Under the pieces are notes generated by a model that did not search any database, had not been told where the DNA came from, and saw only the letters and a program-made list of their open reading frames with translations. A stretch of 64,000 nucleotides of DNA from Squalus acanthias. Taxonomy: Eukaryota. The first letter of the stretch is position 1. Each line of letters opens with the position of its first letter. The position numbers were made by a program, and so were the translations under genes. Positions 2,370 to 35,400 of the stretch are shown here, piece by piece. The stretch lies in NCBI GenBank assembly GCA_030390025.1, contig CM059428.1, forward strand, positions 100,564,001 to 100,628,000. The letters run 5' to 3'.

Positions 2370-2477
2370 GGAAGGACCATGATCACCAGGACGCCCACGA
2401 TGACCAACAGGACCCATAGCACCAGAATGTCCGGATACACCATCTTTGCCAGAAGGTCCAGCAGGACCAGATGGACC
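2370..2477 (-). CDS. COL1A2: COL1A2 exon 48
   Basis: 108 nt, [36 protein letters not shown]. Confidence 0.93.
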
Positions 2478-8400: not shown

Positions 8401-11400
8401 TTGCTAACATTAGCTCTAGAACCTTGAATGCTGTGCATCAGACTCATCATAATGTCAAATTAATTACTAAACATATAAAAAAAATACTTACTGCTGGGCC
8501 TGGAGCGCCTGCTCTACCAGCAGGACCTGGGAAACCTGTCATACCCTAGAAAAAGTAAAGCAGTTGTTGAAATTAGTTATTTATATTCCACGTCGCATTA
8601 GTCAGGTTGAACACAAGAACTAGGAGCAGGAGTAGGCCATATGGCCCATTGAGCCTGCTCCGCCATTCAATAAGATCATGGCTGACATCAACTCCACTTT
8701 CCCGTCCTATCTCCATATCCTTTCATTCCCTTAGAGCCCAAAAATCTATCGATCTCTGCCTTGATTATCTGTCATTGACTGAGCCTCCACAGCCCTCTGG
8801 GGTAGAGAATTCCAAAGATTTACAACCCTTTGAGTGAAAAAATTCTTCCTCATCTCAGTCCTAAATGGCCGACCCCTTACCCTGAGCCTATGAGCTCTAG
8901 ACTCTCCAGCCGGGGTAAACGGCCTCTCAGCATCTACCCTGTCAAGTCCTTTAAGAATTTTATACATTTCAATGAGATCACCTCTCATTCTTCTTAACTT
9001 CAGAGAATTATAGGCCCATTCTACTCAATGAAGTATTTATAGTACAATTATTATTCAACTTACTGATGGACCAGAAGAACCAATAACTCCTTGTAGACCA
9101 GGAACTCCAGCAACTCCCTAAGGAGAGGAATGCAAATAATTATGAATATAGAAATAGCTGTTGTGATAACTATTAATGTGCATGATATTTGCAGGTGAGT
9201 CATTTTCCAAGTGCTGTAGAGTGCACATTTTACTTGACTTTATTGTATGTTACAAAATGACTCCCAGCATAAAGTGACCAGTAGGTATTATAGTGCTAAA
9301 TCCTTGCAGTGGTATTGTTTAGGATGTAAAGTTTGCATAATTGCTATTTAAATCCAATTTGTACAATTTTGCAATGTTATTGCTTTGCATATGTGATGGA
9401 TTGAATGATGATTTTCGTAACAGCTTTGCTCAGAACAAATCAGATTAGACAAGTGAGCAATGACTTTGAAAGTACTGAAGCAACAAGTGAAACTGTATTC
9501 AGTGTGCCACTCACATTACAACTGGCCGAGGAGGACCAGAGAAAAATGGCAGTGGGTAGCCTGTGTGCTAAGGTGGTACAGAAGGCAGAACCTGAAGCAT
9601 CAAGTATATTGTTCTTTGCAGAGCTGAAGCTAAACTGCAAGGTTCTTACAGATCTCTGTCAGCTGCTGAATGAAGGCCTGCAGTACATTTGGATACAGCC
9701 CTGCCAGTGATGGTAAAAGTCACCACAATTTAAGGCAAGCACTGCTGATATATTCAGTGTGGACCAATTTGCTGTGCTCAGATCCATCACCACGATGACA
9801 GATGTTTTAATCTGCCTTGCCAACAATTTCATTCTTTTCTCAATGGACCAACAGCACCAATAGGATAGGGCAACATATTTCCCAAGGATGCAGGAGTCAC
9901 TGCATGCATGTTGTCATTCATGCCCCCGTGCAATGTAATGCTCCACATGAACCGCAAGGGATTTTACTGAATAAATATGCAGCTGGTATGCCACCACCAG
10001 CTCAGATTAATACAATGGCCACTTCCCAGGGAACTTGCACAGCACCTTTATTTTAAGGAAGTCCTCTGTATCATCGTTCTTTGAAAGGAGAGGAAGACTG
10101 GAATGTTAGCTGCGGATGTGCCTTCTACAGCCATAGCTCATGGCACTTTTGCATTAACCACAGACAAAAGTAGAGTGTAGGCTGATATGAAATGAGGAAG
10201 AATGTTTAAATGTCCACAGCAGCAACTTTAGTGGAGAGAAGGATGTTCAATCTTATGTTCCTTATTAATGAAATTTGCATTTCTGAGTGGAGGCAGCTGC
10301 ATGCCAATAGTTGGGATATTGCCTGGCCCTTTAAACTGCTATAGGTATTGCAATACTGCAGCAGCAATTATTTCCTGCCCCCTCCCAATGACAAACTCCC
10401 AATAACAGATGACAATGCCATAGGGGGACCACCTAATATATTTCAATTAAGTTAACTCTAGAAAGTTCATTGGGGTCAGCGCTGAGTCCAACAGTCAGGT
10501 GGAAATTCAGTCCCACCACACTTCTGCTAATGATTACGCTGGAGAGGAAAACCTAGCCTCAACAGTTTATAGCAGTAATTCCATGCCTGTGACATGCATC
10601 ACTAAGGGTTCCACTACAGATACCAATATTGTTCACTTATCTCTCCCCTGCCTGGCAAACCAGGCACTTCTGTGGGAGGGTACCGTTCTGTCTGGTAGGT
10701 AGTATCCATCTGTTCTCTCAATCCCTTTATCAGAGCCTCAAGTGCTTGATTGTCCCAATGAAGTTGCTCAGGAAACAGCTGCACTGAGGTGGCATGTTCA
10801 ATTTTCATAGCCTAAGTGGGTGCTTAACATTTTACACAGGTGTGCGATAGGATTAATCCATTGCCTGCTCTGTTGTGTTCTCATTATAGTGCACAGAATT
10901 GTGTACTAAATAAAACAAGTAAAATTGTAGGTTCAAAGTGTGAAAAATAATGTTGAAACAATAAGCAATGCCCACTTAACCCTTCTTTATTGCCAAAAGA
11001 GTCAATTCTAAGTTCATATCACAAATTCTTTAAGCCATGTTAGTCTAAGTATGACCTGATAAATGACATGGATAAAGCATTAGAAAATTAAATGTTTGTC
11101 AGGATATTAACCTAAATCATTTGCTGCACAAGTATACTGTCATTAAAGTGGTGCCCTTCTGCATCTCAACAATTTATTTCAATGTAAACTAGTCCTTAGG
11201 ATCACAATCCAAGCTAATATTTCATTCCAAGATTTCATTCACAACCATGTGTATCTCAAAGATGACCAAAATGGTCCTGGAGTTTGGACAGTTCAGGCAG
11301 GACTTTCCTCTTATTTACCACTGCTTTAGTTACAGTAATGGGAGTGGGTGGCGGCAGAAATTTGAGTAGGGACCTATTACACCAAATTTCTCCCCATTTT

Positions 11401-14400
11401 TACGCCAGATGATATAGAATTCTTTAAACTATGATCTACATGTAAAAAGAGAAATATTCTACAATGAACTGTCAATTAATTATGATAAAATTACTCTTTA
11501 CTCTAATAACTTCAGATCAGGATACTTACCGGATGACCAGAGGCACCAGCAAGACCAATGGAACCAGCAGGACCGACCTCTCCTTTGGAACCAGCAACAC
11601 CGGTCTCACCTTTAGCTCCAGGCTGTCCATCTGCACCCTATATAATAAGAAAAGAATAAGCAAAATAAAAAAGTAGGCTCATGTTTTTAAAAGAAATGAA
11701 AATAATTAAAATAAGGTAAAAGAAAGTTTTGAAACATACGGGTGGACCAGCAAATCCAGTAGGACCAGCACGACCAGCTTCACCACGCTCACCCTAGGCA
11801 GAGGAAAATCAAACCAAATAACTTTACTGTCCATGCTCCTTCTCGCATAATAGCCCGATTCAAATGTCATTATATTACTGTTAATTACAACAGACTTTCA
11901 ATTCATTGTACTATCAGCAATTGATAAAATATTTGGAAGAATATAAAACAAAATAATAAAGGAACTCAGTCTAAATTCAATTTAACATTTGTTCCTTTTT
12001 TAAAACTTACTGGAGTACCACGAGCACCAGCTGCACCAGAGTGACCAGCAGAACCAGATTCACCCTGAAGAATAAAATGTCAGTCAGCTGATGATGGCAA
12101 TAAAATGTTATAGACATGAAAAATATTATGACAGGGAACTCTCAATTGTGACACTAATAAGAACAATGATGATATTTATATCAGTAATAAAATGACAAGA
12201 ATTAATTTAGTAATGGTGGTATTAATAGAAATAACAGTAATTCTGATAATTGTGTGGAGTCTGTAATTGTTCTGTTATCATTGGTGATGAAGGTAATATA
12301 AAGAGCCCTACATTCCTCAATACACAAGAACAGGTATGAAGCATGCTTTTTTTCAAACTTTGAACAGATACATTACTGAAATCGCTGTAGCACACAAAAG
12401 GCACGGTTTTCATGCGACCCCTTTCATTCAGTGAGAGGTGGGTCGAGCACTACAGTCAGAGGCCAAAACCATTTTCATGGTTGTGCCTCATTACCATATT
12501 CCTGCTGAGCTGCCCCATGCTTGCTGATTGGAGTGGGGAGGAAATCAAGCAGCTTGTCCGTGGAGTTGATTGGGGAGGTGGTGCTGGGGGAGGGTCATGA
12601 AAAGCTAGGCATCAGACGGGGCCAGGCATTTAAGCTCCTGCTGGCCCCACACAAATCGCCAAAAAACCTACCTGCCCCATTTTTGTAGCGGCCTCCAGCA
12701 ATCCCCTTAAGGACCACTGGTTGGGCTACTCTAAACCCAATACCACTATTTACCACATGTTGTTATATTGCACCTTTGTGTTAATGCAAGGCCATCTCAC
12801 ACTGCTTGAGGTTTACACTAATTGCAACATAAAGCTACATTTTAAAAGTGCCTAGGCAGTCCATTGTGTCTCTTGGTAACTTTTAAGACTCTGTATTGTA
12901 TCTTCCTAATGTTAGGATAAAGTGGATGCTCCCACTGTTCTCTTCTAACCTTAAAGGAGTAATGTTTCAACTTTCTGCTGCTGAAGGGGAGACTTGCCCT
13001 TCTGGAGCACATACTGGAAATTCAGGTGCGCACTGCAAATAGTTTTCCGATCATTTAAATTAATGGCCAGGAAATCATGTGCATTGTGCCGAACTTTCAG
13101 TAAGCTTTGTCAGGGGGTGAGACTCCTTGATAGCAGCACAAAATCGGATAAAATTGCAGACACCAGCAACAAGTTCTAACTGTGGTGACAGAGTTCCCTG
13201 TAGTTATAGTGATTGTTTGATATGTTATTTAATACTATACAATATCATGATAATTGTAATACAAGAACAGTAGTGGTCTGTTAGACAGCTGGAGTGTCAT
13301 GGTGATGCCCTTTGAATACCAGAGATGTGCTGTAAATTTCTATGATTCTATACTAATCAGAATTTCAGCCATGTTAGCATGGAAAGAGTTCAAATACATT
13401 CATAGCACATAATAGTTTGGATTTTCTTAATAACTGAAAAAGTAATATGATATTATTAACATTGGAAGTACTGAGTTTAGGAGAAGAAAATGAAACATTG
13501 GTAACTGTTTTGGCTGATGATCTCAAGCACTGGTCTCACCATTAATTCATCACACAGGGAGCTGTTTATTGCTAGGTAAACACAGGCTCCTCAATTGGCT
13601 GTTAATAGTTATTCTATCAATGACAAAAATAATGCCAATGACAATGTTACAGCAATTAACATAAGGATAAATGGCTGCGAATAAAGGCATTGGTGTCTGG
13701 AGCCGAAATCATCCTATTGGTGAGAAGCCCACTTAATCTCATAAAAACCTTGCGCTAAAGCAACTATCATGCTTGGAAGTTGTATGAGAACTTGAGAAAA
13801 AAAATGTCACAGTGAGGGATTTATAAGAGGGGGATTAATGTAAGCTTTCAGAAACTTACCCTATCACCAGAAGGGCCACTGGGACCAGGAGCACCAGCAG
13901 AACCAGGAGCACCCTATAAAATAGGAGTATGGTAATGTTAAGATAGAGGTTATATTGGTGTGTATTCACAGATACAGTGGTACTAAAGGCTTAAGTTTAA
14001 TGCAGAAGATAATTGTGGGACACTTACCCGTGGTCCATCGATGCCTGTATTTCCTTGAGGACCCACTGGACCGTGATCACCCTATAAAACATGCATGATG
14101 AGTTAGACTGAAAATAGGAGAGTGTAGAAATAGGAGACAACAACACATATTGTTGTTTTTTAATATCTCTACGAATTCTTCAAAGCATTACTTTCAAAAC
14201 TGCTAATAGTTATATACTTTTTTTGTAGAATAGATATTGCTCTGGCCATGAGCTGAAGTTGCTCTGCTTTACACTTCCACCATAGTACATCCTTTAAATC
14301 GTTAAAAAAAATACTAAATGATAGAAACATAATGAGCTATCATTGTAAAGCTCCTAATATGAAGCATAGAACATATGAGTGAGTTTCAACTGTTTTTAAA

Positions 14401-17400
14401 TGGATTGGTAGATAACAGATAAAAGATGCATGATCACTCGAGTGCTACAGAAGCCAACACTATTAATCAACTAAGAAGCTAGGGGTCTTTAAAAAGGGAA
14501 AAAGAAAATGGAGAAAATTATGAATAGTTTAAAAAAAGATTCACAATATAAAAAACAACTTACCTTTTCACCTTTGGGACCAGGCGTACCAGCACCACCT
14601 TGCTCACCTGACATGCCCATTGAACCTTGAGGACCTTGATGCCCAGGAATACCAGCAACACCAACTTCACCCTAATAAGGAAGTGGTAACAACTGATTAA
14701 GGTTGCTGAGAGTTAGTTAATACAACACCATACTTAAGGCACTAAAAGCCCCTTTGCTACCTCTTCCCAAGAAATTCGAGTTGCAGTGTAGGACCCCAAT
14801 TTAAGGAGCCTAGCGCCAGTTTCCGATGTGTGCCCTGGGCAACTAAAAGTCACCCAAGTCAATATGGCATCCGGCACATTACCGGCGCAGTTTCTTACGC
14901 CGGAAAAATGGGGAGAATGTGAATTTGTCCCCCTCTGTATCCATATTAATACCACATAAGATGTGTGTAAATGATTTCAAAGAAATACAATAAGAGATCA
15001 AGGAGGAGACACCAAAGCATAGGCTGAATGTTGATAATAAGACTCCTAAAAATATTCCTAATAACTACTGTAAAAATGTTTTAGGAACTCGAGTTAAATT
15101 GTGAGAAATATTAAAAGCAACTAGGGAGAATGTATCATTTATGACTGGCTTTGATTAGAATTTCCCGCTGGAAATGAAGGGTGCAATCACGGTGTAATGG
15201 TGTGTGGGTAGTGCAAACTGGTTTCCCTTCACATTGACACAGCAATGGGACTGCAGTATGAATCCAATGTCGGGCTAAGCTGACACCAGAACAAAGTGGA
15301 GTGCGGCACACTGTGTTATACAGGAGACAAACTATCAACTTGTAAAAGTGTTCTGATATAATTTAAAAAGAGCCACCAGAAATTCACTAATTAACTGCTG
15401 AATGAATTTGGGTGGCACCAACTGTACATTTGTGATGTCTATAATTAGATTTTAAGATACAAATTAAACACCTTCCTTGTTTTCAAAGAACTTTTAGAAG
15501 GCAGGTGTCAGTCGTTCAATAGAGTTGTTTGCTTTCAACATACCTTTCCACCATCAGAACCAGGAGCACCTTGGGCACCACGTGAACCAGTAAGACCCTG
15601 GGAACCTGCAGCACCTCGTTCACCTGGGAGACCTCGTTCACCCTAAATGGAAAAATGTGAAGCGCACTACTTTAATCATGATCTTATGACATTAAACAAA
15701 CTGAAAGTGCAAAACCACAGAAGAGACTTAAACATACTCTTGAGCCGGAGGCACCTGGAGTTCCAGAATCACCTCGGATACCCTGTAGAGAAATGAGAGG
15801 GTAATAAGTAAGATGTACAAATTAAAAATTAAAAAGAAACAAAGATGCTAACTTTGGCTATTATGGTGAAGACTTGCTCTGAGTGCTATTGTAATGATTT
15901 CAGAAGCCCTTTGGGTTTATGATTTCATTTCACACACCTCAAAAAGGGAACCATACCCTTATAGGTTTATAATGAAGAAAAATAAAAGAAGCTTTCCATT
16001 GGCTAGTAAGAATGCTGGTATGAACACATCATTCACTTGTATATTCTATAGTTTTTTCAAAATTCATTATTTGCATAATTTTGCACCATACCGTTCAGAT
16101 TATTCAAGTTCAAACATATGGATCATACTCTGTTTCTCTCTCTACAGATGCTGCCTGACCTGCTGAGTATTTCCAGCGTTTTCTGTTTTTATTTTATATG
16201 GATCATACAAGCTATTTCTCATATTTTGTCCCTCATTATTGTTTGCCTTACCCGATCACCTGGTTTACCAAGTTCTCCAACCGCACCAGAAGGACCAGGG
16301 ACGCCCTATAATAACAGAAAAAAATAAGCCCAACATTAGCACATTATGATTGCAATACCAGATACCTGTAAAAGGGAATTTAATGGGTGAAAAATCATGT
16401 GCAGTTGGCAGACAAATCGCACATTTATAAAATGTTTTTATTGTCTTTTCACTTAAGAATCAAAACATTTTTTGGAAAATTACTTCATACTACATCCTTC
16501 TCAGTAACTACACCAAATTTTAAAAATATTAAATTGTATAAATTATTGCTGGAGATGTTAATGTATGAGTTGCTTAACTTGCTTATACTAACTTCCTCCC
16601 TCTACTATTTTAACAGAGGAATTAATCTGTTTAATTTAACCCATTTAATTTAAACAAAGGGAGGAACTTGGTATGAGTATGTTAAATGTTTGTAGAATAA
16701 TATCATTGACAGTAATTCTACCCTTAAGACTTGAAATTAGTGCATGCTGCTTATGATTAGTGTTAATGAAATGAGAAATCTTTCAAATCTATCTTTTTAG
16801 CTAAGAGAAGACTATGTCATCACTCACAGACATTCGACCTTCAGCAATATTTAACAGTTAGTAAATCACCCTTTATTGTCACTTCAAAAACAAACTGCTT
16901 TAATACAAGAATTACATGTATCAGTAAAACACCTGTTTTATTTAATGGGAAAAACACGTACTACATCCTGGTGGAACTAAGATTTAGTTAATGGGTTTTA
17001 AACAAACTCCAGGTAGATAGAAGTGGTTATCGTTGGCTAACTACAGCCTGCAAACACTTGCAGTAGGTTCAACCCAATACCGGCTCTTTTATCTCCACCA
17101 GTGATGGGATATTTGTAATTTCTTAATTCAGTGCTTGCAAGGTAATTCTGATACAGTAGAATTAATATTATTAACAAAGTGATTGTAACAACTTCCAGTC
17201 AGCCATAACGTAACATTTGGAAAAGATGATTAAAATGCAATTGCTAGAAGGACATTTTTGCATTGAAATCAAGCCGTGTGCTATTAGTACGACACACATT
17301 AACACATATGTATGAACATTCATTGTCTGCTAATTATACAAAGATGTTAACCCATTTATTTTAAATATATTTTCATTAGAACAGTACACCAGCCAATTGC

Positions 17401-20400
17401 AACCCATTTGTGTTTTATAGTAAAATGTACAGTATTACTTTACTCATTTTTATGTCCCATTTTACTGTGCTGTTATATATAAAAGTATTATAATTCAACA
17501 AGCTTATACTATTGTACCTAGTACAAAAAAATATTCAATTTCAGAGACATACCTGGAAACCAGAACTGCCAGCTGGACCCGATTCACCTCTCGCTCCAAC
17601 AGCACCCTAATGAATAACAACACTGAAATTGTTCATCAGGTCAAATTGCTGAGTGCTAACTATATTTAACTTGTCAAATTTGTATATACAATATATATGG
17701 TAGTCAAAAGTAAATTAATTTATTCTGTAATAATATTATCATTTAAAAATTTCTATTGCATAAATGTTAATATGTCCATTACATACATTTATTATTAGTT
17801 TAGCTACTATATAACATCTACCAGTATAAAGTATACATACCTGATAAAGTTGCATGAAGAAAACGTTTTTCAGATTTCAAAATAATAGCCGTGATAAAAA
17901 TTTTGAAATTAAACTGTGTGAATAGCAGCATGCAAACACTTTAATACACCTATATCCAATTCCTCTATCCATCATTTAAATCTAGACATTAACCCATTTA
18001 TTTTAAATTGGTTAAAGCTTTTGTTAAAGTAAAGGAAAAGGAATTGCATATGAATGTATTAAGCGTTCATCAATTCATATTCATACGGCATCATTTTAAG
18101 GCCTATGCTTGTATCTACAAACATCTGATCTACTTACAGAAACACCACCAGGACCTTGTGCTCCAACTTCACCATCTTTGCCAGCTGCACCCTGAAGGAC
18201 AAAAGCATCAGAGGAAAATCTTGTCAGTTCTATTACTTACATCAATAAACGCTACTTACTGTCATGTCTGTATTCTTCATACTGCATTTAACATTCAGAA
18301 CAAATAGGTCAATTGCATTTTGTGTCTGCTGTTTTTGGAGATTCCTGTGATTCTATATCCTATACAGTGGCCTGCTCTATTACTGACTTTACTGGAGACA
18401 TGGGAATGATTGCTACATGTTTCTCCAGAAATGGAGAATTATCTACAGATTTATGCATTTTTGTAAATGCCAAATTCTGCCTTTATTATATTTTATTCTT
18501 TGCTTTGTGTAATTCCCATAGAAACTTTATTTAATAAGAGCAACAGATCAGAAAATATTAACAATAATTGCTCTTTCTCCCACACATTGGGAGGCGATTT
18601 TCAACTGTTGGCCGCCCTTTTCTCGCCTGAAAAACAGGTGACCAGCAGAGGAAAATCTGAAGGGCACCTTGCCCACCTGATTCCATTTTCAGGCAGGTCT
18701 TTAAATAGGTGTCCAGCCTCTCTCATCCAAAATGGGTGAGAGGTTATTTAAATATGTAAATTAGGGTCATAGGATGCTGATTGTAATATTAATTTAATTA
18801 TGGGTGGAGTATGTGCCATGCATACTAGTCCCAGCTGTACCAGACGTTTAGCAGTCTAACCAACAGTCCATAGAAAGACCAGGAAAAGGTATTATTTTTA
18901 TTTTTAAGCTTTTTGTGAGATCCAGAGGACCAGACCCTACCTGCCAGCCACTCTGTGTGGAAGCCGGCAATTTTCCACAGTCTGAATCCGGCAACCTGTG
19001 CCCATTTTGCTCCTGCAGCTTGCCGGTAAGGTTTAAATAAGGCCCGAACCTGAAAATGATTCAGGGCTCGTGACTGTAGCCTTAGGCGTGTGCCGCGGGC
19101 TCACTCACGACTTCAATGTCCGTTTTGGGTCGAAATTGAAAATCCTCCAAATTATTTTGTAACCTCTCACCCAGTCTGCATCCAATCATTCCTTATCTTA
19201 AGTTCCCACTTAATGTGCATGACTTTTGTGAGTAATTGAAGGAAGGTAGGCTCCTGGAATGTAGCTTCTTGTATATGAAAAAAATAATGTTCAGATTGCC
19301 TCACAGAACAGCAGACTGACATTTGTCTGCAATAAATATTCTCCATGATGTGGAGATGCTGGTGTTGGACTGGGGTGGACAAATGTGAGAAGTCGCACAA
19401 CACCAGGTTATAGTCCAACAGCTTTATTTGAAATCACAAGCTTTCGAAGCGCTGCTCCAAGGAGCAGCGCTCCGAAAGCTTGTGATTTCAAATAAAGCTG
19501 TTGGACTATAACCTGGTGTTGTGCGACTTCTCACATAAATATTCTCAGTTCTCCTCAAGTACAGTACTGTTGAAGGTCCACTTCGGTTTTTACTATGGCT
19601 TTTAGACTAGTTACCTGTTTTTGGACATAGCATTTTTTGATTGTCTAAGAGGTCTAATGTTGAGGCAAAGTTTTCCTTTTTAGAAAAATAGGACCATAGC
19701 CTTGAATTTTGCCATGAAACATTGCATATGAATGCTAATGCAATTGTCTGAAATTCATCCTTCTACCATTTTAGTGGAGCTATGAACCCATTTGAAATAA
19801 ATCAGTTAATGCCTCCGCTAAAATAGTGGAGCAAGGAATTTCAGAAGATACAATAAAGTTTGAATACTTGAATTTCATGGCTGAATTTCAACACCTAGGG
19901 GGTAATGTAACCTAACCCACCCACCGGGGAACTCTTGGGATTGGATTGCCCGCCTGTTTTACAACCTGCTCAATTTTACTTTCCGTTGAAGTCAATGTAT
20001 AATAATTCCTACATAGAAAATGTGGTTAAATTATCTTTAAGTGACAGGCATTAATATTGGAGGAATTTGTGACATAGTCAACATAGATCAGACACTAAAA
20101 GCTGGAAGTTACTATTATCAATATTCGCAGATTAACACTTAACTGTTCCATGCAATGGTCCTGTGTTATTTTAATGTAGGAATTAACCCTTTTATTTAAA
20201 ATGTGTTAACCCTCTGTTAAAATAATGGACAGAGGAACATTATGCAAACAAGTTAAGTGTTTATCTGCTAATATCACAATAATAGCTTCTACCCGTAAAT
20301 GGTTCTAAAAAGCACCACTCTTACTGTAAGTGAAATAGACCATTGATGCTTGAGTGTATTATGTATTGACTTTATACAGAGCATTAAATAAGCAATACTG

Positions 20401-23400
20401 TTGAAACTATTGCAGAAGTACTAATGACATTAAACATACCCTAGCACCACTAGGACCGACACCTCCTCTGTCTCCAGGCTTACCAAGTGCACCCTGGGAA
20501 ATAAAGCAGATATTGTAATAAGAATAAGCTATGACTCCGTTACAAGGGTATTTTTTAATCTTTGGCATTTTGAAGAATCATGTTTGAACTCTTATCTAAA
20601 TGAAGGAATATTCCAACTAGCTCATATTTTACTTAACGTGACTAACAGGGTTTATTTCTGAGTTAAAATTTGGGGGCTTAATTACTAGACAATATATGGT
20701 TGCAGAGCTAGTGCAGAACAAGCAAAAGGCGCTTTCACATTTAGAACTTCTGTAGTTGAGACCGTGGGAGTTGGCACCCATATTATTAGCTCCCTGCATT
20801 TACATTGCTAAAACTATCAATGCTGCCATTCGGATATGAGAGCTGGTTTTAGTTATGTAAATGCAGGAAGCCGGCACATGAACATCACTCAGCCACAATC
20901 CAAACAGCTGATGCATCAAGTGTATAAGCTCCTAAAGAATAACACTTTCACCAGCTGTTTAAGAGCAGAATCAATCTCCAATCACTTCTTATTGCTTGTC
21001 TAACTAAAGCTGTATTTTGAGTGTCAAAGCTACAATTCAGAATACACAAAGGAATTGGCTGTAATATAAATCATTTTGCTTAAGTTCATAGAATATTAAA
21101 AGTTTTTAAAGGAAAAATTTATTTTAAACAAACTTAACATTTAAATAATTTCAGTTTGGAAAAATGATATTTATAGATCAACGGTAAAGGCTACTCAGAT
21201 AATGTTAAAACAAAATATTTTGAATTTTAGAATTTATTTACTGGTAAAAATTTAATTGTGTTACTTACAGTAGCGCCCTTTGGACCAGGGAAGCCCATCA
21301 TACCAGCCTGACCTCTTGGGCCAGCAGAACCAGCGGCACCAGAACGTCCTTCTTCACCAACTGCGCCCTACAATGTATGATCTTAGACAATGAAACAATG
21401 TTCTTCACAAGTTACTGTAGCATATCTTACATATAGCTCAATTAATTGTACTTTGGTTTATTGTTTTACTTCCATGCATATTATTGCTAGTTGCAAAAAC
21501 ATTTGAGCGAATACTTTGCATTTGTTATTCATTTGTAATTTCATAGTAGTTGGTATTGCAGCATAAGGTACAATGCACAAAATCTAACACATTAGTAGGC
21601 TTTAGTATTTTAAGGATCACATTGTAGAAAGTTGTGGTATGGACAACAAAAAGTGAAAATCAATTGAGGAAGATATCCATGGTTACTAATTATCCTATGA
21701 TATTATCTCCAGTGATATGTAAATTGCAGCAGGATTTGTATCTTTAATCTGCTGGTCTACATATTGGTTTGAAATACGACTGAGATTTAGTTCAGGATAC
21801 TATAATATTACTAACACTCTAATTATGACCAGACAGTAATACATAAAACAGCTGCAACCAAATCAAAGTAAACAGCTGCAGTTGAATTGAGATAGTGAAT
21901 ACCTTTAATCAATATGGCTCAGAATTCTGTGTTCAAGGCATAGTTAGGATCTAATATAACATTCAAAATGTTGCCGTATGGACGCTCCTTTCTAATAGCC
22001 TAAATGCCAATACTTTCTCAAGAAGGTTATTCTGATAATTTGACTTTTGTTTAGCTAAAAATTATTTTATTACATTTTAGTACACTCCTTGTGTACTGCT
22101 AGTCTTGGATACTTTCTCCATATAAATGTCACTGCAAAGCTATATTTAAGCAACTGTATCTGGAATTCCTATATATGGATATGGGTTCATGACATTTTTA
22201 GGTAATAAGTAACTGATAATACAATTATATATTTGCTTTAATGTAGCTAATTGTGAAGTGCAGTTTTTGTGTAGGAGGCAGATTTTGTGTACAATATTAA
22301 AAGAAAATATTATTTCACGTTACTGGGGTATAGGACATAGCTTTTGTTAAGTAATAATGATTATGCAATGTTATTGCATCATAAATATGTAATTGTTAGT
22401 ATCACTAAATGGCACAGTGTTTGCAGTTACTGTACCTACATTAATAAATTATTTGAAATGCTTTTTAATATAAAAAGTTGTTACCTTAAAGGTTAGCAAA
22501 ACCTAATGTTTGAAGCCTATTAATTATTTAAACGTTCTGTAACATTTGTAATGTAGTATCCCCATGCAATTTGCCATGCTTGATTCAAACCTACTCTTAG
22601 ATTGAATAAGCTTTCAAGAATGGGGAGCAGAAAACCTCAAAATCAACTTACAGCAGGACCTGACTTGCCTGGAGCACCTATATTGCCAGTACTACCTACG
22701 AGACCCTGAAAAATAACACATTACTGCAAGGTAAGAAAACTTACTGTAACACCTTGATTTCCAATAGCACCAGTTCTACCAGGTTGTCCAATATGACCCT
22801 ATAAATATTGAGGAAAGCAAAAAAGTTTTACATCTCATTCTATCATGTGTTCAACTAAGATATCTGATTTTAGATTTCCACTGAACTTGTCTATTCATTT
22901 TCATATAGTCTTTAAAAAAACTCTCAAGGATTAATAGTAATTAGGAATGATGACAATCCCATCTGTGAAAATGGAAGTGTGTTGCTCCTAAAAGTCCTCA
23001 ACAGATATAGATAGAAAAACCAATCGAACACCAGCTCCAAGTTAAGAAATAAGAAAAACAAAATCAGTAACATTTCATTTTTTTGAAGACATATTTATGA
23101 AAAAAATCAGGAAATAAGTTAAAATGTCTAAACTCCTTGGTAGAATTTAATAAAGAGATATTTTCTATTGTCTACAATATAATTCTGAGAGCTTCTACTA
23201 AAATGTTATTTACTATTATTTAGCATTATAAACTACAGCAGTACATCTGAGTAAGAATGTAGTTATTTGTTATAAACATTATATGAAGTTTAAAAGTATA
23301 TAAGTAAAAGGTAAATATTACTCAACAAACTTTTAATTATATGCAATACAACTAAGCCTATTACTATTCTAGTTGTTTCAATTTTACTCACCCGTGCACC

Positions 23401-26400
23401 AGGGATACCACTTTCACCAGGACGTCCAATGTCACCAGGAGGTCCTTTGGCACCAAAAGAACCAGATTCACCACGTCTGCCAGGAAGACCCTAGAAATGA
23501 AATAGAAAGTAAGATAGCAACATTCTGAACGTTACATATAAATGTATCATTCTAGTTATTTAATGCGAAGAAAAGAAATATCACAGTTTGTACAAAATAT
23601 AACCACATGTTTCTTATTTTTTACTTGATGCATTAATCTTAATAAAGCAAAGTTTACCATGCCACCAGCTCGTCCATTGGAACCTGGGATACCACGGTTA
23701 CCATGGGAACCCTGCAAATCAAATGAGAGAAAAGGTTGAAAATCTCTTTACGCATGGGACTCAATGAACTGTGCATGTGTTAATCTTAAACAATTGTAAC
23801 TCAGAATTAATATTTTCTCATTTATCATAATGTTGTTGTTTTACTGTACTACTAATTTTTTTATATATATATAATTATTATGAAGTACATAGACTAATGT
23901 TATGCAGGCAAAACTGTTATGGTTCATTCTGTATGTATATGATTGTCACACACAAATTCTTGTGATCAGCACATTAGAACTTCATAAAAATTATCCTAAT
24001 AAGTTATAATTATAATTAAAATGTTCAATAGTATTCAGACAGAAATGCATTTGTGAGTATACTGAATCCCTTTTAATAATCTCAGATTCATTAGACCAGA
24101 AATATCTTGCTAGGACTTTATAATTACAAAAAATAGATATAAGCTTTCCTATTTCATTAAATATCTGTAAATATTATTACAAAAAAGTAGTTATTGATTT
24201 GTTTTAAAAAACTGAAGATCTGTAAATATAATTCAGTAATATGTCAGTGCAATTTTTACAATTTAAAATTAACCTTACCCTTTCGCCAGAAATTCCTATA
24301 AGTCCCTGAGAACCAACTTCACCACGAGGACCTTGCTTGCCTTCTTCACCACGAGGACCAGCAACACCTGAAGGGCCGGCATCACCCTGGTTTTGGAACA
24401 AAAAGATGCAGACATGAGCAATGGTTGACAGAAAATCTCATGGCAATCAAAAATATGGAAGAAAATGTGCAAATAAAATATAACATGCATATCAAATAAA
24501 AAGTCCTTACAGGCTCGCCTTTGGAACCGGTCTCACCCTTGATACCAATAGCGCCTGGTTCACCCTGGGCAGGAAGTTTACAAAAGAAAAGGTTTATTAG
24601 AAATTTAGTCATAACTTTAGTAAAATGACATTGTTTCATTCCATGAAAGGATTATTTATGGTAATTGCTTTACTATAGGATTGTGTATTTTACTTACAGA
24701 GAGTCCCCGAAGACCTGCAGGACCAAGTGTTCCATGTTGGCCAGCGAGACCAGTTGGCCCTGGAAAACCAGGAGCACCTGCGATACCTGGAGTACCCTAT
24801 GTAAAACAAGCACAAGACAAACATTTGTTATTTTAAAATATAAGTGGACTTATCAATGAGACAGTTTATGAAAGCACTACATAGGTGTGCCAAAAATACT
24901 TACAACTGCACCCTTTGATCCAGTGATACCATTTGCACCTGCATTACCCTAGGATTAAAAAAAAGTATGAATATAGTAGATGCAATATTTCCAGTTTGAT
25001 CAAATAATATCGCAAAATGCCATAATATTGTTACCACAAGTACTTACCAGAAGACCCAATGGACCAACTGGACCACTAGCACCAGGCTCACCTCTAGAGC
25101 CCTGAGCACCAGACGGACCACGAGCACCATGTGGTCCAAGCTCACCCTATGTTATACAGAAATAAAAGAAAGTCAAATTGTGTATTTGACATAAGTTATC
25201 ACAGGTATGTTGTATTTATTAATGTGCTAACAGCTCATTGATACAGTATCAAGCACATCCAGCACAAAACTAACTTTCTTTATAACCTTCAACTAACTGA
25301 ACATTACACATTGAGATAGTCTGATTTTGCTTAGCTGTGGCCTATTTTACTTCTCGTTGTTTTTAATTCTGTTGTTTTTATAAGGACGTTAAAACAAGTG
25401 GAATGGTCACTATAGTAGATCCCATCTAACAAAAATATTAAAATACTATTTATGAATCATTTCAATTGATATACAGTGAAGAGAACATAGTATTAATAGA
25501 TATTTAATTAAAAAACTTTTGGTACTAGAATAAATAAATTATAACTTTATTGTTTTTATCTATATTCAGTTTGTGGAGAAATTTTTAGACTTTTTACCAC
25601 CAAACTGTAACTTTTAAAACATCTGAATTACTGTCAATGCAGTCCAAAATCAAATAAAAAATCAAATGGCTGTGCTTTTGACTTTATTCTGTGGTATAAA
25701 TTAAATGATATCGAATGATCAAGCCAATGGCAGGAAGTTATATAACGATATTGCTCAAGTTCATTTGTTGGATCTAATTATAGGATGTTATTTAGAATAA
25801 AAATGAAAAACAGAGTACTTTTAATTTTCTTCATTCCCACAAATAATGCACACTGACATTTCTTTAAAATCATATGTTAATACATACACTTCTTTGACTA
25901 AAAGCCATTCTGAGTACTGACAGATCAAATCTGTGGTAGTATGAAAACAAAACCGTGACTTTCACAGGGACTAGCTGAGAAACACACCATTCTTATGGAG
26001 ACCTCACTAAATAATCAATAATTTAATTTTGATGGTATTATTTCACTTTCTGAAATAAGCTATGGATGCAACATTCTCCTGGTAGGCAGAATGTCCTAAG
26101 ATAGTCATGACAATTAATTTAGTTATAAATAACCCAACATAATTTTAGTTTGAATAATAATCAAGATACTTCTACCCTTTGCCACAGCATCGACATGTTT
26201 TCTCAGGAATGTTGTAAAATTGTGAGTTATTTGCCATTAATATCACTGAGTTTCAGAACTCTTGTGACATCAGAAGTGTCCAAATAGGAAGCACAAAAAA
26301 ATGACAGGATACAGATGAGAAATCCAGTTAATAAATAGATGCCTATAGTTACAGCTACCAATCATTACACCCTCAGGTTTGTGGAAGCGTAAGTTAAAAT

Positions 26401-29400
26401 GGTCCCTATGTGGCTAGCATGAAGATAAAATTAAACGCAATGATTATTCTTGTTGTTTGCACTGCCTTATCTAGAGTTAAACCTGTAACTATAGATAAAA
26501 GCTACAGAATTATATTAATTTGTAACTCTATTATACAATATTTACTTTAATGTAATATTGAATACAATAAATGTGACATTTGTGTATCAAAAAGTTAAAC
26601 GTTTGATCTGTGTAGAATTATGGTCAAACAATAAAACAATTTTTGCAATTGGTTATGAAACACCTGTGCTACAACTGGGGTCTGTGAATGGGAATCATGG
26701 CTAGACTTTAAGCATTTTTAAATTATATGCTAATATAATCAGAAATTTGAACACTGAATTGTGACGGGTTACAATAAATTGGTAAATAGCTTATTTAAAG
26801 CATTTTCATAATTTCTAATAGTTAGAGTCAAAGGGTTATAAAAATGTAAGAATATCCCACATCGCAAATAAAATTGTTTGTGTGATATTACATGTTCACT
26901 TTTAAATATCGCCCTGTGTTCACTTTTTGTAACATTACAAAATGTCAGCTGTTACCTTGAGTCCAGGACTGCCTGGGAAGCCTGGGGGACCACCTGTACC
27001 CATGGGTCCCTATAAAGAAAAGAAATTGCAAATAGTAAGATTGCTTTTTGTGATTTTTTTATACCACAATTTACCATGCAGCTCCATGTTATATCAAATG
27101 TCTGCAGGAACAACTTTGATGCTAATGCTGATGAAGACGATAGTAAACAGTGAAATAGTTAAAATCTCCACCAAAATCAATTCAATGGTATTGCAGTGGA
27201 CCTGTGTTTCTGCTTATTACAGGTTAGGAGTCAGTACCTGGAGAGATACTGTTCTAGTATTTGTACCTGTCTACTCACATTATAATTATACATCCTTTAC
27301 AGGAGTTACACCATGGACAGTAACTTTAATGGAAGTCACGTAATATAAACTAACTTTTCATTTATGTGGAATTTTTTTCATATTATTGCATAGTGCCAGA
27401 CTAACAGTAATATACAAAAGTACATGGTGATGCAATGATGATAATATATCTCGTATCTGACTGAATAGAAGCTGTATGAGATATTGCCTACTATTCTTGA
27501 GGATGCATGAGAACATTATTTATAAGGAATGATTCCACAATCTCATACTCCAATTCGGGAGGCTCCACTCACAGGATGTGTGTTGAAAACATGGCTATAA
27601 CATTATAGCCTTGATTCTCCGACCCATACTCCCAGAGAGCATGGCTGCCCATTGGGAGCATCAGATTGCAGAATCACTCTTATAACTTGTTAATAATTGC
27701 ACATTTGCCTATTAAAGATGGATTAAGATTAATTTAACATTATGCAAGTGGCATACTTACAGGAGGGCCAGAAGGTCCTGACATACCATCACTGCCTCGG
27801 GGACCCTTAAAGGAAACACAAAACTTGTATTAATAAACTTACTAAAACCTAAGAATGCTCAATGCTACAAGAGAGACCATCAATAGACATCAAATTGATA
27901 ATAAAAAATAAACACTGAAATAAATGCTTTCATCAAAATGCCAGAATGGAATATTATAATATAACATTACAAAGAGGCAAAACACTTATTCATTAGCAAT
28001 ATTTTAAAAATCATCTTAAAGATCTATTTTTAATGGCATATATTTAATTTTGTTCAAAAATATTATTGGTGACCTTAGTACAGGGCCTCATTCAATGGGA
28101 AGGCAGATCCGCCAATTCATAACTGAAAAATTGGGTGGGCTGTGAATTAGGTGCGCTGACCATCAAGCCCAATTGTCTGATCTCCTTCTTGTTAAGCAAG
28201 GCTCCATGCTGGCAGCACTAAGAGTAAAATTGAGAAAGTATTAGAAACTTGAAACTCACAGATGGGCCAGCACCTCCAACACGGCCTCGCTCACCTGGAC
28301 CACCACGAAGACCCTGATAGCAAAAGGAAAAATGTATGTTTATTTTCGCTCAGGCCATTTATTTTTTAACCTAATATACGACATTTTGTACAAAGCTGAC
28401 TTTAAGGATTACGCAGTGTGTGACTAAAACTATTCTTACATTTAGAATTAATAAACACGTACCAAGAGTCCAGGGCTACCATTTGATCCTGAGTTACCAG
28501 TCTCACCCTGGGAAAGAAATGAAAACAATCTTTAGTTTTTTAGTTGCTTTTTACAATGTTAATAACACAGGAAAATATGTGCAACAATTAAACTTGAACA
28601 GGTGATATATTCTAACCTTACTTGATGACAAAGACCCTATTGTTTAATTTGTGCAAAAAGACATGTAAAATACTTCATCACCTGATGACTGACTGGCCAG
28701 CTTGAAACAAACATAATCAAGAAAACTTTGTTTTGCTCAGTGCTTTCTTCCAGCTATTGAGAAGTGTAAATGCTCACTGTTCTCATAGCAGTGGAAACAC
28801 TACCAGTGATGAATGACCTAGGCTCTGTTTATAGTTTACAGTGGTTGCTAAGTGTTCCACATGCTTAGTAGCAGAGGTACAGTCTCCTCCTGATAAATTT
28901 AATGTAATTTTTTGACGGGAAAAAATTGGAATTAGCTAATAATTTGAATGAAGCAATGTAAATAGCACAGTAAAGTGTAAATTTAGTACAAAAAAGGAAT
29001 TGTCAGATAATTTGAATTAAACAACTTTGAATGAAGAGGAGTAGGACTGTACACCATTTCCTCACTAGCTGACAAGGTGACGTTAAATGGTAATGATATT
29101 ATTCCAGTTATGTCTGCTGCCAGGTAACAGCAGGATATAACAGAGTAGAGAATTCTGATATGCATTTGGGAAGCAATTTACTACTTTTACTTTCCATACC
29201 GTGTATATCGCCATATTTACAAAACTTAAAGATGGAGATGAGAGTTTTTCTGGCCTGACTTTGATGACATACTGTAGCAATTGTTTCAAGTTTTACTCCA
29301 GACCTCTGGGTTAAACGAATAAAGCCTGATAAAAATGTTTACCAAAATAAACCCAAAAAGCTTTCTTTTACTTTTAACATCACTGGATTAAGTTTCTGAC

Positions 29401-32400
29401 TTTCTTGCAAATTAATAAAAAGAGAAAATTACTACACAGGATCGATACTTGCATGAGGATTATTGGCTGCCAATTCGCAGGTGTTTCAACTGAACACAGC
29501 CAATCTTGCGAGAAGTGAAGTTAAAATATTTGCTCTGATTTTTACTTAATCACGAGCACCACAAACTTGTGGACTTGAATTACAAATTACTTTTCAAATA
29601 TTGTCAGGATAGATATTCGCCTTGTAATGTAATTACTTTTCTAGGTAAACAAAATTTAAATTAAATTTCAAAATATGAAGATGTAAAACTGTAGGTTGTC
29701 CCACTTCAAGGTAGTGCATTGTGGGTAACTCTGTTATCAGTTTAACAGTCCTATGCCTCAAAGGAGCAACAGATGCACTAGAGACAACACTGCAATAATA
29801 AGCACCAGAAAGACGTGAAGAAAAACCAAGTGGAAAAAAATGGCCAAAATAAAGACCAAAAATAAAAGCTGAAAATGAGAAAGCTTAATCATACTCAATG
29901 GATAACTCTGGAAGATCAGTTTTCTCCCATGTGGGAAAGGCATATAATAAAGTGACAATGTCTTTACCAAGTGCTTTAAGTATGTTTATAATACCAGAAG
30001 CATACATTATAATTAAGACTGCTGAATTGTTGTAGTGATTACTAAGTAATTTAGTGTTTGTCAAAAATTTCTGCGTGAGGGAGCCCTGCAAATATTAGCA
30101 CACACCTCAGGATCACTTGCAATTACTGACATGTTCCTGGAGCTTTGTCTCAACTTCTGATGTCAGTTGCCTAAAGGAAAACTGACATCAGAAGTTATAT
30201 TGATAAAAAAATAGTACTGGAGAAATTAATGCGACTGAAAGCTTACATCCTAGGGTTTTGAAAGAGGTGGCTATAGAGATAGTGGATGCATTGGTTGTCA
30301 TTTCCAAAATTCCATAGATTCTAGAACAGTTCCCACAGATTGGATGGTAGCAAATGTAACCCCACTATTTAAGAAAGGAGGGAGAGAGAAAACGGGGACC
30401 AGTTAGCCTGACATCAGTAGTAGGGAAAATGCTAGAATCTATTATTAAGGACGTGGTAACAGGACGCTTAGAAAATAATAATAGGATTGGGCAGAGTCAA
30501 CACGGATTTATGAAAGGGAAATCGTGTTTGACGAATCTGTTAGAATTTTTTGAGGTTGTAACTAGCAGAATAGATAAGGGAGAACCAGTGGATGTGGTGT
30601 ATTTGGATTTTCAGAAGGCATTCGATAAGGTGCCACACAAGAGGTTATTAAACAAAATTAGGGCTCATGGGATTGGGGGTAATATACTAGCATGGATTGA
30701 TGATTGGTTAACAGACAGAAAACAGAGAGTAGGAATAAACGAGTCATTTTCGGGTTGGCAGGCTGTAACTAGTGGGGAGCCGCAAGGATCAGTGCTTGGG
30801 CCTCAGCTATTTACAATCTATATCAATGATTTGGATGAGAGGACCAAATGTAATATATCCAAGTTTACTGATGATACAAAGCTGGGTGGGAATGTAAGTT
30901 GTGAGGAGGATGCAAAGAGGCTTCAAGGGGATATAGACAAGCTAAGTGAGTGGGCAAGAACATGGCAAATCGAATATAATGTGGAGAAATGTGAAGTTAT
31001 GCACTTTGGTAGGAAAAATAGAAAAGCAGAGTATTTTTTAAATGGTGAGAGATTGGGAAATGTTGGTGTTCAGAGGGATCTGGGTGTCCTTGTACACAAA
31101 TCACTGAAAGTTAACATGCAAGTACAGCAAGCAATTAGGAAAGCAAATGGTATGTTGGCCTTTAGTACAAGAAGATTTGAGTATAATAGTAAAAACATCT
31201 TACTGCAATTATATAGGGCCCTGGTGAGACCACACCTGGAGTACGGTGTACAGTTTTGGTCTCCTTACCTAAGGAAGGATATACTTGCCATAGAGGGAGT
31301 GCAACAAAGGTTCACCAGACTGATTCCTGGGATGGGGGGGGATTGTCTTATGAGGAGAGATTGAGTAGACTAGGCCTATATTCTCTAGAGTTTAGAAGAA
31401 TGAGAGGTGATCTCATTGAAACATACAAAATTCTTACAGGGCTTGAGAGGTTAGATGCAGGGAGGATGTTTCCCCTGGCTGGGGAGTCTAGAACCAGGGG
31501 TCACAGTCTCAGAATAAGGAGTCAGCCATTTAGTACTGAGATGAGGAGAAATTTCTTCACTCAGAGGGTGATGAATGTTTGGAATTCTCTACCCCAGAGG
31601 GTTGTGGAGGCTCAGTCGTTGAGTATATTCAAGACAGAGATAGATCGATTTTTGAATATTAAGGGAATCAAGGGATATGGGGATAGTGCAGGAAAGTGGA
31701 GATGAGGTAGAAAATCAGCCATGATCTTATTGAATGGCAGAGCAGGCTCGAAGAGCCAAATGGCCTACTCCTGCTCCTATTTCTTATATTCTTATGAAAA
31801 CAGTGCTATCATTGTAAAAAATATGTTTTATTAGTATATACAACAACAAAAATAACATGCTGCTACTTTGACAAATAATGAAATCTGATTACAGATGAAC
31901 CAAAATCTGATGGCATCAGGGACCTGCTGGAAACCCCTTGCAGACTCCCTAAGTTGTGGGAAGCGGTTTCAAAACCTCATGTTTTGATTTCAAAAGGCTC
32001 GTTCTAGATCATAATTAAAAATAAATTCCCCAATTTGTTCCTACTAAGTGGTTATTAGAGGAAGACAGAGGTCTGAAAGCAGACCAATCATCTGCCCTCT
32101 CAGCCATCATTGGGGTTGGTGGGATAGGAAGACTCAAGGTGGGGGAGAAAAAGAGGATTGTCCTTATCAAACAAAAGCAGAGAAAAGTGCAAGTTTATAG
32201 AGGTTTATTTGGATGTTGTCTTAATGAACATTCGTCTCTGCAGACTGTCAGAAATACGATTCCGTATAAAGATAATGCCAGATCCATATTTTCTGCCATG
32301 ATCTTCGATACAGCTCCATTCTCTGGGGACTGTTCAATGGAATCATGATACTCAAACTTTGTAACTGGTCTGAGATGTGCTTACAATAGAAAAGAAGCAG

Positions 32401-35400
32401 TTTTGGTTCTCGTGGGATGAGCCTATATGTATAACATCTAGATATCTGGCAGAAATCATCAAATACAGAGAGTTATGAAACACCTCATACGTGCCCAGAA
32501 ACAACATTTGGCATGTCTGTTGTAGAACTGTTTTGGATGTTTTGTGATGAACTTGAAAATCTACTTAAAATATGTCCAGGCATGTTACGAGGAAGTCTGT
32601 CATTTGACTGTTCACTGCAGTTTCAAAAACCTAAAGCAGCTTTCCTTTCCTTAAAGATATGATGAGGCAGCCAACAGTTGATTTGTATAATTTCTCTTGT
32701 GTTCTGCCATGGAAACAATTATTGGCCCCAAAGTTATAAATCTGTTTCTAATTTCTGCACTGGGATATGCATGGCTATGTAGCTGAAATGTGTTTTTTTG
32801 ACAAAAAATGAGTCATTGCCCTCATAAAACGGTAACTTTTTACATATGGTCTGTAGATAGAACATTTGGCATATCAATTAATGACTGTGATGAATAACAA
32901 AACAAATTCAGCAGTTTCTGAGCACATTTGGTGCTGTATTTTTTTGCAAGTGTTATAGCCACATAATAGTTTATTCTGTTTAACTATTCCTCTTGTATGT
33001 GCATTGTTCGTGAAATCCTCCAACCAGGCTCCAACTCCTGGGAGATACAAATATTAGGCAATATCATGATTATTTATTGCTGTTTCATTTGTATAACTAT
33101 AGGTTGACACTAATCAGTCTTGTATAGACCTCATGGACAGCTTTGCACTTGGGAACCATAAATTCCTTAATTCTAGGACTGGCGTGGAAAATAAAGAGCA
33201 ATGGTGCTGAACCAGGTGCTTTGTGAACTCTTGCTGTGATGATGTTAGCTGCAAGTGGCTGCTTTTGACTCTGATTATTTATAGCATGTTTTGGTATAAC
33301 GCACATTTAATGGAACGCTGTGGTTGCTTACTAGGATGCTGTGACATACGATAGGCTAGTTGGTCACAGTACAATAGCATCGCTAACAAAATGGACTGAA
33401 AAGGTGAATCTCAGAAATTTAGGAGAGAAACCACAAAAAATACCTGAGATAAGAACTTAGATTTCCATTGAAAACCCATACAGTAACAGCGAAGTATATG
33501 TGTCAGTATTATGACATGGAAATAGGCTGCAGTGAAAAATTTGGCAAAGTGAAGACAAAAAAGGGGTGAACTACTTCCCTTCAACATTTTTAGCATAAAG
33601 GTCAGTGCAGGAAGATTTCCACTGTGGGGAAAGTGTAACAAAATTCTAAACCTGCTCTTTGCAAGGGAGCGTATGATTTCAGTATACTGGGACCCCCTAA
33701 ATGGACTGCAATGGTATTTTCTCGTCCTGTACATTCTAATTTCCCAGTGAAATCTTCCCCCAGCATGAGTACAAAATGGGATTTCCAGTTTTGTACTCAT
33801 GTTCAGTTTTCACTAAAATTCAAAATTGCAGAAATTTCACCCAAAATGGATAAATTACATAGAAAAATATGAATATGAAGTTCTCTACATCTGAACATAA
33901 TTAGAAAAGACTAAAGGTTTCTGTTCAATTTTCTGATATGAAATCTAAGTATATTGCTTGTAAAATGAAAGTCAGCAAATGGTACAAAGGGCTAGAAATT
34001 CACCTCCATAGCGCCCGGTTTTTCAATGCTATGGGTGCCATTTTGTGTCCAAAATGGCATGCGCGCTGTGCACGCACAATTCTGGTGTGGGCCGCGCCAG
34101 ACACCATCTTGGGAAAGGTCAAATAAGAAGCATACTTTACCCAAGTCTGAAGCAGGCGTCAGGCTATTAACATATGCCAATAAGGGTCCTAACGCCTGCT
34201 TCTGCTCCCTCTTGCAACTTTGGTTTGCGTCTGAGGCAGCCAGCACCAGTGCCGATTGTCTCCGGGAAAACCAACGCTAAATAGCACGGAATTAAAAAAA
34301 GGTAAGTACTTACCATAATCACTGCCGCTCCTGATCCAGTGATCTCTGACCTCACTCCCGATTCCGACCTCCAGGCCCCCTAGATCTCCCCCTGGCCCCA
34401 ACCTCCTAGCACCCCCCACCACCACAGCACTCCCGACCCTCCAATAATACTCCAGACCCCTGCGATCTTCTTCCCCAAACCCTGACAGCTCTCCGATCGC
34501 ACTCCGAGGCCCAACCAATCCTCCTCCAGATCCCTGCAATCTTACCCAATTACTTACCTGAAGACTGGCGCACGAACATGTGCGGGCTCCTGTCGCTGCG
34601 CCATTTACATGATAGAGGTCCGAGGCCCAAAATCCCGGGCTCCTCGGACCTTCCCATTTGAGCGCAGGCTGTTAGCACTCTGCAAGTAAGGCGCCCAAAA
34701 ATGGATGCTACCGAATTTCTAGGCCAAAGAATATTCCTTTGTTTACTGTATAAATAGCATACTCCCTAACTCATGCTTAACAGCTCAGCATACTGTAACT
34801 TGATCGTGGCTGCATGTCTTACCTTCATACCGGCGATACCCACATCTCCCTTAATTCCATCCAAACCATTGTAACCCTGTAAGGGAATGGAAGATATTAT
34901 AAAATATCAGTTAAACGGTGTAGCACTAATTATTTACTGCAGTAGAACAAAGATATAAAAAGTATCAAAAATAAAATGTCTAACTCACTCGGTGTCCTTT
35001 CCTGCCAGAGAGACCAGAAGTTCCTGGGAAACCACGAGCACCCTATGAAGAGGAAGCGGAAATACAACTGAATCATCAAAATGAAAAGATCTGGCATTGT
35101 TGTTATGGCTGTTTGGTAAAGAAAGTATATAATAAACATTTGCATTCAACAGAAGTATCACTGCCTTCAAGTCAGATAGTTCAAAACCAGATGTTATTAT
35201 TAGATTATATAAACCTCATGCTGCATCATCTCTTACCTGAGGTCCAACAAATCCACGGTCACCAGTTTTGCCAGCTTTGCCATTTGAGCCCTGTTAAGAG
35301 AAAAGTAAATACTTAGTACTAATACAATGTTAATTAAAGAGGTTTTGCACATAAATTTATACTATTAGGTAGATTATATTACTATTTACGTATGTGAGAC

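Follow-up and report, generated by a model that had tools for sequence, protein, structure and literature searches.

The window, a 64,000-nt stretch of the Squalus acanthias genome, carries on its minus strand a fibrillar collagen gene, col1a2, together with the features listed in Table 1; exons 49-52 of the gene lie beyond the window, in the adjoining segment L002. In a tree of 19 C-propeptide rows, which contains neither tetrapod COL1A2 nor named COL3A1 or COL5A2, the C-propeptide encoded by exons 50-52 falls in a clade with four ray-finned COL1A2 sequences (support 99/97). The same tree places the C13 gene with COL1A1 (100/98) and the C28 gene, weakly, with COL2A1. There is a single COL1A2-type C-propeptide locus in the genome. 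Exons 1-6, read by eye from genomic DNA, form one open frame that encodes a short N-propeptide with no VWC or thrombospondin domain, as expected of COL1A2 (a criterion taken from the accessible part of PMC9320522); exons 2 and 3 measure 17 and 21 nt, and a cysteine-rich exon is absent from exons 1-6. Judged by its sequence, the gene is the shark COL1A2 orthologue.

Every exon from 7 to 48 is canonical in size, lies in phase 0 and is bounded by AG/GT. An uninterrupted helix of about 338 triplets carried on phase-0 exons of 45, 54, 99, 108 or 162 nt is the pattern of fibrillar clade A; col1a2 shows this pattern, and six paralogues in the genome match it in exon size. With one of the two cassettes described below, exons 7-48 total 332 triplets, a count that agrees with the one first proposed for this locus, and with both they total 338. 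Exon 6 contributes one further triplet and exon 49 five, or six if the final Gly-Gly-Asn is counted, which brings the one-cassette helix to about 338. Proline is scarce in the part of the helix encoded in the window (2370-37593), at 131 of 996 residues, and serine is abundant, at 81; glycine occupies X or Y positions 15 times.

Table 1. Features of the col1a2 locus, in window coordinates
Feature	Position	Strand	Remarks
Host gene col1a2	2370..48952	-	Start codon at 48952; window stops at exon 48 (2370)
Exon 23, 99 nt, common upstream exon	23392..23490	-	Joins 24a and 24b; maps to rat alpha2(I) 3hqv_B residues 339-371
Exon 24a, 54 nt, phase 0, helix residues 361-378	22745..22798	-	Probable diverged duplicate; deeper form in 4/4 runs
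Spacer, 39 nt	22706..22744	-	24a donor, predicted branch A 22732, in-frame TAA 22723-22721, 24b acceptor
Exon 24b, 54 nt, phase 0	22652..22705	-	Probable ancestral-type exon 24; minor form
Exon 25, 99 nt, common downstream exon	21269..21367	-	Exon joints in RNA-type contigs
Conserved block, intron after 24b	22342..22651	-	Kept with 24b in organisms D and E; candidate regulatory element, putative function
UGCAUG	22568-22563	-	First intron block
GCAUG	22579-22575	-	First intron block
CUAAC	22496-22492	-	First intron block
ACUAAC	22400-22395	-	First intron block
Second intron block	21456..21609	-	Matched in organism E only; 24 substitutions in 154
UGCAUG	21478-21473	-	Second intron block
ACUAAU	21596-21591	-	Second intron block

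Other collagen genes occur in the same genome. Four clade A genes cluster at G000:C3:11.72-12.44 Mb (L045-L074, L006, L009-L011), three of which form one clade (100/99) and stand beside a col5a2-like gene. This arrangement suggests a triplicated col3a1, an identity drawn from linkage (accessible part of PMC8887668) in a tree with no named COL3A1. In one col3a1-like gene (G000:C3:11854001-11934000, L055-L062), a pattern search left the places of exons 27 and 33 without a 54-nt exon, which may be due to exon loss, imperfections in the helix or unusual splice sites. Downstream of col1a2, an open LINE reverse-transcriptase frame of 340 residues (L004:1844-2866) has three whale-shark proteins among its best matches, at 69-74% identity.

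Two exon 24 cassettes in the major helix

Recomputation bears out what the earlier note had described between exons 23 and 25, namely two intact 54-nt, phase-0 Gly-X-Y exons with AG/GT ends, separated by a 39-nt spacer with an in-frame TAA at its eighth codon. The copies share, as claimed, just one of 12 X/Y residues, and 29 of their 54 bases are identical. The 39 nt of the spacer compare with at least 95 nt in the other 41 introns measured in the gene; in the six paralogues, each of which has one exon 24, no gap between detected helix exons is shorter than 80 nt. When scored with a matrix built from the gene's own 41 constitutive exons, both acceptors lie at the median (above 20 of 41) and the donors lie above it (above 28 and 29 of 41). 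Both cassettes are multiples of 9 nt, such that frame and Gly register survive any combination of them.

Across 32,350 nt of intron sequence from the gene there is no run of four or more Gly-codon triplets, and the antisense strand offers no comparable exon-shaped match. The cassette region was found once in the 3.71-Gb genome. The observation of two cassettes is exact and is not a product of chance.

Usage in assembled transcripts

A word search with positions 22640-22810 returned 18 runs from 8 studies. Twelve of these are of RNA type, which is the search tool's own guess, and exon joints were read over 21200-23760 in four of the 12 (X1, X2, X11 and X12), one per organism, with X3-X10 left out. 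The runs consist of assembled contigs, from which rare variants are dropped, and are likely to represent spliced RNA because they contain exact exon-exon joints with GT-AG ends.

The order 23-24a-25 is present in all four runs. The 23-24a joint has a depth of 5175 in X1, 142.3 in X2 and 591.4 in X11, and the 24a-25 joint depths of 5329, 142.3 and 591.4, respectively; in X12 the order is seen by loose ends only, which flank a 110-nt 24a contig and resemble exons 23 and 25. Fully spliced 23-24b-25 occurs in one of the four, X2, where a second 110-nt contig carries both the 23-24b and 24b-25 joints at a depth of 51.9 (versus 142.3). In X1, the last 10 nt of exon 23 are joined to 24b, followed by the whole downstream intron (depth 28 versus 5329), and in X11 and X12 exon 24b is found on low-depth contigs that carry approximately 300 nt of that intron. 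The share of depth held by 24b is 0.5% in X1, 26.7% in X2, 1.4% in X11 and 3.5% in X12; this span of 0.5-27% covers four runs from four organisms without tissue labels, and the figures are rough, as contig depth cannot properly rank exons.

Neither a 24a-24b joint nor a 23-25 joint is listed in any of the four runs, all of them assembled contigs of the kind that drops rare variants. No contig covers the interior of the spacer in any run, which is a weak hint given that assemblers drop low-depth links, and in all four the depth in the bin over the spacer is that of the exon pieces alone. Each assembled transcript thus carries one cassette, although rare co-inclusion or spacer retention is possible among variants that contigs drop. 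The proposal of mutually exclusive use accords with these data: both arms are present in X2, mature joints in X1, X11 and X12 (there by loose ends) involve 24a only, and the abundant 24a-24b joints that the earlier note had named as fatal to its proposal do not appear among the contigs of the four runs. The other outcome that it had named as fatal, a dead exon 24a, is reversed, with 24a being the deeper form in four of four runs and kept in two organisms that are about 15% diverged.

Two further features of X1 deserve mention. Both introns flanking the cassettes are fully covered (21338-23420; depths 22 and 28), which is not the case for intron 22-23 or the spacer, and this weakly hints, from contigs only, at slow removal and a fixed splicing order. 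Exon 22 (23657-23709) is represented by two 60-nt contigs, one base apart, with depths of 713 and 833; these are probably two alleles.

Origin and conservation of the cassettes

Against 1911 Gly-aligned windows from the paralogues, the best protein match of 24b is exon 24 of col1a1, with six of 12 X/Y residues shared, where five are reached by 0.2% of windows. No specific protein match was obtained for 24a in the same set. At the DNA level, col1a1 exon 24 is the top window for both 24b and 24a (37 and 36 of 54 bases, respectively; mean 26-27, sd 2.9), with 24a's match only one base ahead of five other windows. The cassettes are therefore neighbouring homologous exons of the sort expected in a mutually exclusive pair, both being 54 nt long, in phase 0 and closest in DNA to the same exon, narrowly so for 24a. 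A Lys at position X of triplet 5 is shared by 24b and all six paralogues and is replaced by Asn in 24a. These comparisons, which draw on paralogues from the same genome, point to 24b as the ancestral-type exon and to 24a as an old, much-changed duplicate. A source for 24a in another col1a2 exon was considered, but the best window (36 of 54; mean 26.8, sd 2.7) is unconvincing and a duplication of exon 24 is preferred. It was unexpected that the diverged duplicate, and not the ancestral-type exon, holds most of the depth, weak as that measure is.

The sequences of X1 and X2 are at least 99% like that of the window. In X11 and X12 (organisms D and E), exons 23 and 25 differ from it by 13-16% and exon 24a by 15-16%, while 24b with the adjoining piece of intron (22342-22706) shows 12-14% substitutions and 10-15 gaps. 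The part of the intron following 24b is so about as conserved in D and E as the coding exons. Most of the remaining intron sequence has no match in either organism, for which divergence or lack of cover may account. Beyond these, organisms F, G and H are represented by six large DNA-like runs in which 67-80% of the sampled words are present (0.80 for F and G, 0.67 for H). Without spacer cover, X2 reaches four and X1 seven of 15 sampled words, so that approximately eight of 15 need the spacer, and the runs of F, G and H must hence hold some spacer words. These word matches suggest the same exon layout in three more organisms.

Protein-level searches covered other parts of the gene as well. A search of PDB with 24b gave no match. 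With exon 51, identity reached 83% (79% at full coverage) in a search with 157/169 matches, with no named cartilaginous fish among the 120 listed; with exon 49, two of 139 candidates passed a strict E-value cutoff of 1e-20. A representative protein library gave 109 matches, mostly short fragments.

Mechanism and alternatives

The explanation that we consider very probable overall is that exon 24 of col1a2 was duplicated in tandem long ago in cartilaginous fishes, giving rise to two 54-nt cassettes of which each transcript receives one under the constraint of the short spacer, with the derived exon 24a as the default and the ancestral-type 24b as the minor form. Pro-alpha2(I) would then exist, as seen at the level of RNA contigs, in two forms of equal helix length that differ at residues 361-378. 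The only branch-like pentamer before 24b has its predicted A 13 nt from the 24a donor and 27 nt before 24b. Steric interference is held to operate when donor and branch point are less than about 50 nt apart (PMC5740500, for 57 human clusters or 9%, and the accessible part of PMC7969005), and any branch point inside a 39-nt spacer falls within that distance. Because the predicted branch point is far under this limit, joint use of the 24a donor and the 24b acceptor should be blocked; double inclusion is probably prevented in this manner, by a spacer that is too short and a sole branch-like site so near the donor. Retention of the spacer would add a stop codon, and such RNAs would presumably be destroyed. 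For 24b, the partly spliced contig in X1 suggests a route in which the upstream intron is removed first. A reason to keep exactly one cassette may be found in human disease, where changes in helix length are dominant-negative (accessible part of PMC9320522).

A different reading of the same contigs is that of an exon replacement in progress, in which 24a has supplanted 24b, leaving the latter as a leaky vestige with RNAs that mostly remain unspliced downstream and yield little protein. It would account for the three runs in which 24b contigs make up 0.5, 1.4 and 3.5% of depth with the downstream intron kept, an intron whose third codon is a stop. However, X2 contains fully spliced 24b at 27% of depth, the 24b frame is intact with splice sites at the median or better, and 24b plus approximately 300 nt of intron is as conserved in D and E as coding exons; contig assembly, moreover, can lose low-depth spliced arms. 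We regard replacement as unlikely. We give still less weight to the idea that exclusivity arises mainly from RNA structure or decay, and not from spacer length, through a 24a donor that pairs with the spacer and hides either itself or the 24b branch site. Five bases of the donor are predicted to pair with 22730-22726 (probability 0.98-0.99), leaving the branch site in a loop, so that a weak hairpin may cover the donor. Nevertheless, the predicted hairpin amounts to only -6.3 kcal/mol, the predicted fold of the region is no more stable than that of shuffled sequences (z +1.27), and the structure would disfavour 24a, which is the deeper form. Such a hairpin could tune the ratio of the two forms without being needed for exclusivity.

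Ordinary cassettes, at times both included (18 extra residues) and at times both skipped, would also preserve frame and Gly register, their lengths being multiples of 9 nt, and contigs may hide rare forms. With 24a-24b or 23-25 joints listed in none of the four runs, and with a spacer below the steric limit, this seems highly improbable. Hardly credible at all is an assembly artefact that stitched together two alleles or paralogues. The copies, to be sure, resemble each other no better than random helix windows do (29 of 54), but the genome holds one DNA match and one COL1A2-type C-propeptide locus, both cassettes in X2 splice to the same exons 23 and 25, both exons are present in D and E, and most of the sampled words (67-80%) are also present in the six DNA-like runs of F, G and H. 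Tandem duplication followed by one-at-a-time splicing is the reading carried forward here.

Candidate regulatory elements and predicted consequences for the protein

Both intron blocks contain UGCAUG, the RBFOX motif. Six of seven motifs of this and the related kinds in Table 1 fall within the 36% of the intron that is matched in distant species (P ~0.01, noticed after the fact). Among the substitutions listed for D and E, none affects ACUAAC or CUAAC. According to the accessible part of PMC3875643, ACUAAC is the QKI core; the distance to the QKI half-site, 21 nt, exceeds the range published there (1-20) by one. A tentative and rather doubtful suggestion is that the conserved downstream intron serves to favour 24b in certain tissues or at certain stages, RBFOX- or QKI-type proteins being possible mediators. 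A broader hypothesis, to which we give somewhat less than even credence, is that cartilaginous fishes switch their type I helix by tissue or stage, with the Pro-poorer, Lys-free 24a used in most tissues and RBFOX/QKI-type factors restoring 24b, via the conserved intron, where fibril packing or ligand binding must differ. If true, the helix of a vertebrate fibrillar collagen would be subject to regulated swapping, with an architecture convergent with that of nematode let-2.

Replacing 24b by 24a removes the conserved X-position Lys, lowers Pro from two to one, and introduces His, Arg and two beta-branched residues. The swapped stretch, at helix residues 361-378, corresponds to 1.54-1.62 D. In exon 25, at helix residues 396-404, there is a GVMGFP-like stretch with Met for Val, where the col1a1 and col2a1 paralogues carry a GVMGFP-type receptor motif; a GVMGFO-type site is the DDR2/SPARC site (PMC2807035 and PMC3034869, accessible parts). 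The residue changes between 24b and 24a would be expected to affect both the surface charge and the stability of the helix locally, within the D2 gap zone and approximately 18 residues upstream of that type of site. Shark alpha2(I) gene models selected for their similarity to other vertebrates would probably take 24b, the minor form, and collagen proteomics would then miss peptides; a ZooMS paper (PMC8548793) contained no usable peptide. A natural, length-neutral swap of 18 residues also provides a ready pair for studying X/Y effects on helix stability, fibril packing and ligand binding.

Comparison with known systems

The two cassettes of col1a2 are a genuine and conserved pair of exons, mutually exclusive in the assembled transcripts, within the type I collagen helix, a region usually treated as one sequence per gene and in which length changes cause dominant human disease. 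The pair also shows a duplicated exon overtaking its ancestral counterpart with both retained. Automatic annotations may already list both isoforms without describing them.

Exons 64A and 64B of COL5A1 presumably lie in the C-propeptide and are removed with it, whereas the col1a2 swap stays in the mature fibril. Like the col1a2 exons, they are duplicated, equal in length, mutually exclusive and part of a vertebrate fibrillar collagen, but they are 69-nt, non-helical exons (PMC5740500). As a pair outside the helix, they contradict the earlier note's view that alternative splicing of fibrillar collagens is confined to the N-propeptide. In file 3 of the same human exon catalogue, the fibrillar entries among 28 'COL' rows are this pair and COL24A1 (a 42-nt candidate, not Gly-X-Y), and COL1A1, COL1A2, COL2A1 and COL3A1 are absent from its 10 supplementary files. 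The accessible part of PMC9320522 mentions natural splicing for no fibrillar collagens other than COL2A1, COL11A1 and COL11A2; these N-propeptide cassettes likewise represent natural alternative splicing of fibrillar procollagens, but through inclusion or skipping outside the major helix, whereas col1a2 swaps exons inside it. In a catshark collagen paper (PMC4584932), 'splic' and 'isoform' have no occurrences. The literature search, which had most subscription papers and bioRxiv supplements outside its coverage, returned no vertebrate exclusive exons within a major fibrillar helix.

With regard to mechanism, exons 2 and 3 of alpha-tropomyosin are a pair governed by steric interference. In OGDH exons 4a/4b (accessible part of PMC7969005), a branch point similarly lies less than about 50 nt from the upstream donor; OGDH differs in that its intron is longer and its distant branch points have been mapped experimentally, at 25-41 nt from the donor, whereas in col1a2 the whole intron is 39 nt and the distance of 13 nt is predicted.

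The closest parallel is let-2, the C. elegans alpha2(IV) gene, whose exons 9 and 10 are also homologous, mutually exclusive collagen exons with lengths divisible by three (PMC2119826 and PMC4165533, accessible part). The earlier note knew of no described case; the literature search likewise returned none from the interior of a vertebrate major fibrillar helix, but exclusive exons in a collagenous region are known from let-2, across a 30-nt spacer. The intervening intron is too short to excise in let-2 (30 nt) and probably so in col1a2 (39 nt). In let-2, the intron that follows the downstream exon is bound by the STAR protein ASD-2, and at the corresponding place col1a2 has its conserved block with ACUAAC and CUAAC. 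According to the same accessible sources, let-2 differs in encoding a network collagen, in exons of 108 and 111 nt that are 57% identical and differ mainly in a Gly-X-Y interruption, and in having a demonstrated embryo-to-adult switch, whereas the col1a2 pair is known from contigs without tissue labels. Unlike let-2, the col1a2 pair belongs to a fibrillar chain in a vertebrate host, with an uninterrupted helix, identical exon lengths and one of 12 X/Y residues shared. The two pairs probably arose independently.
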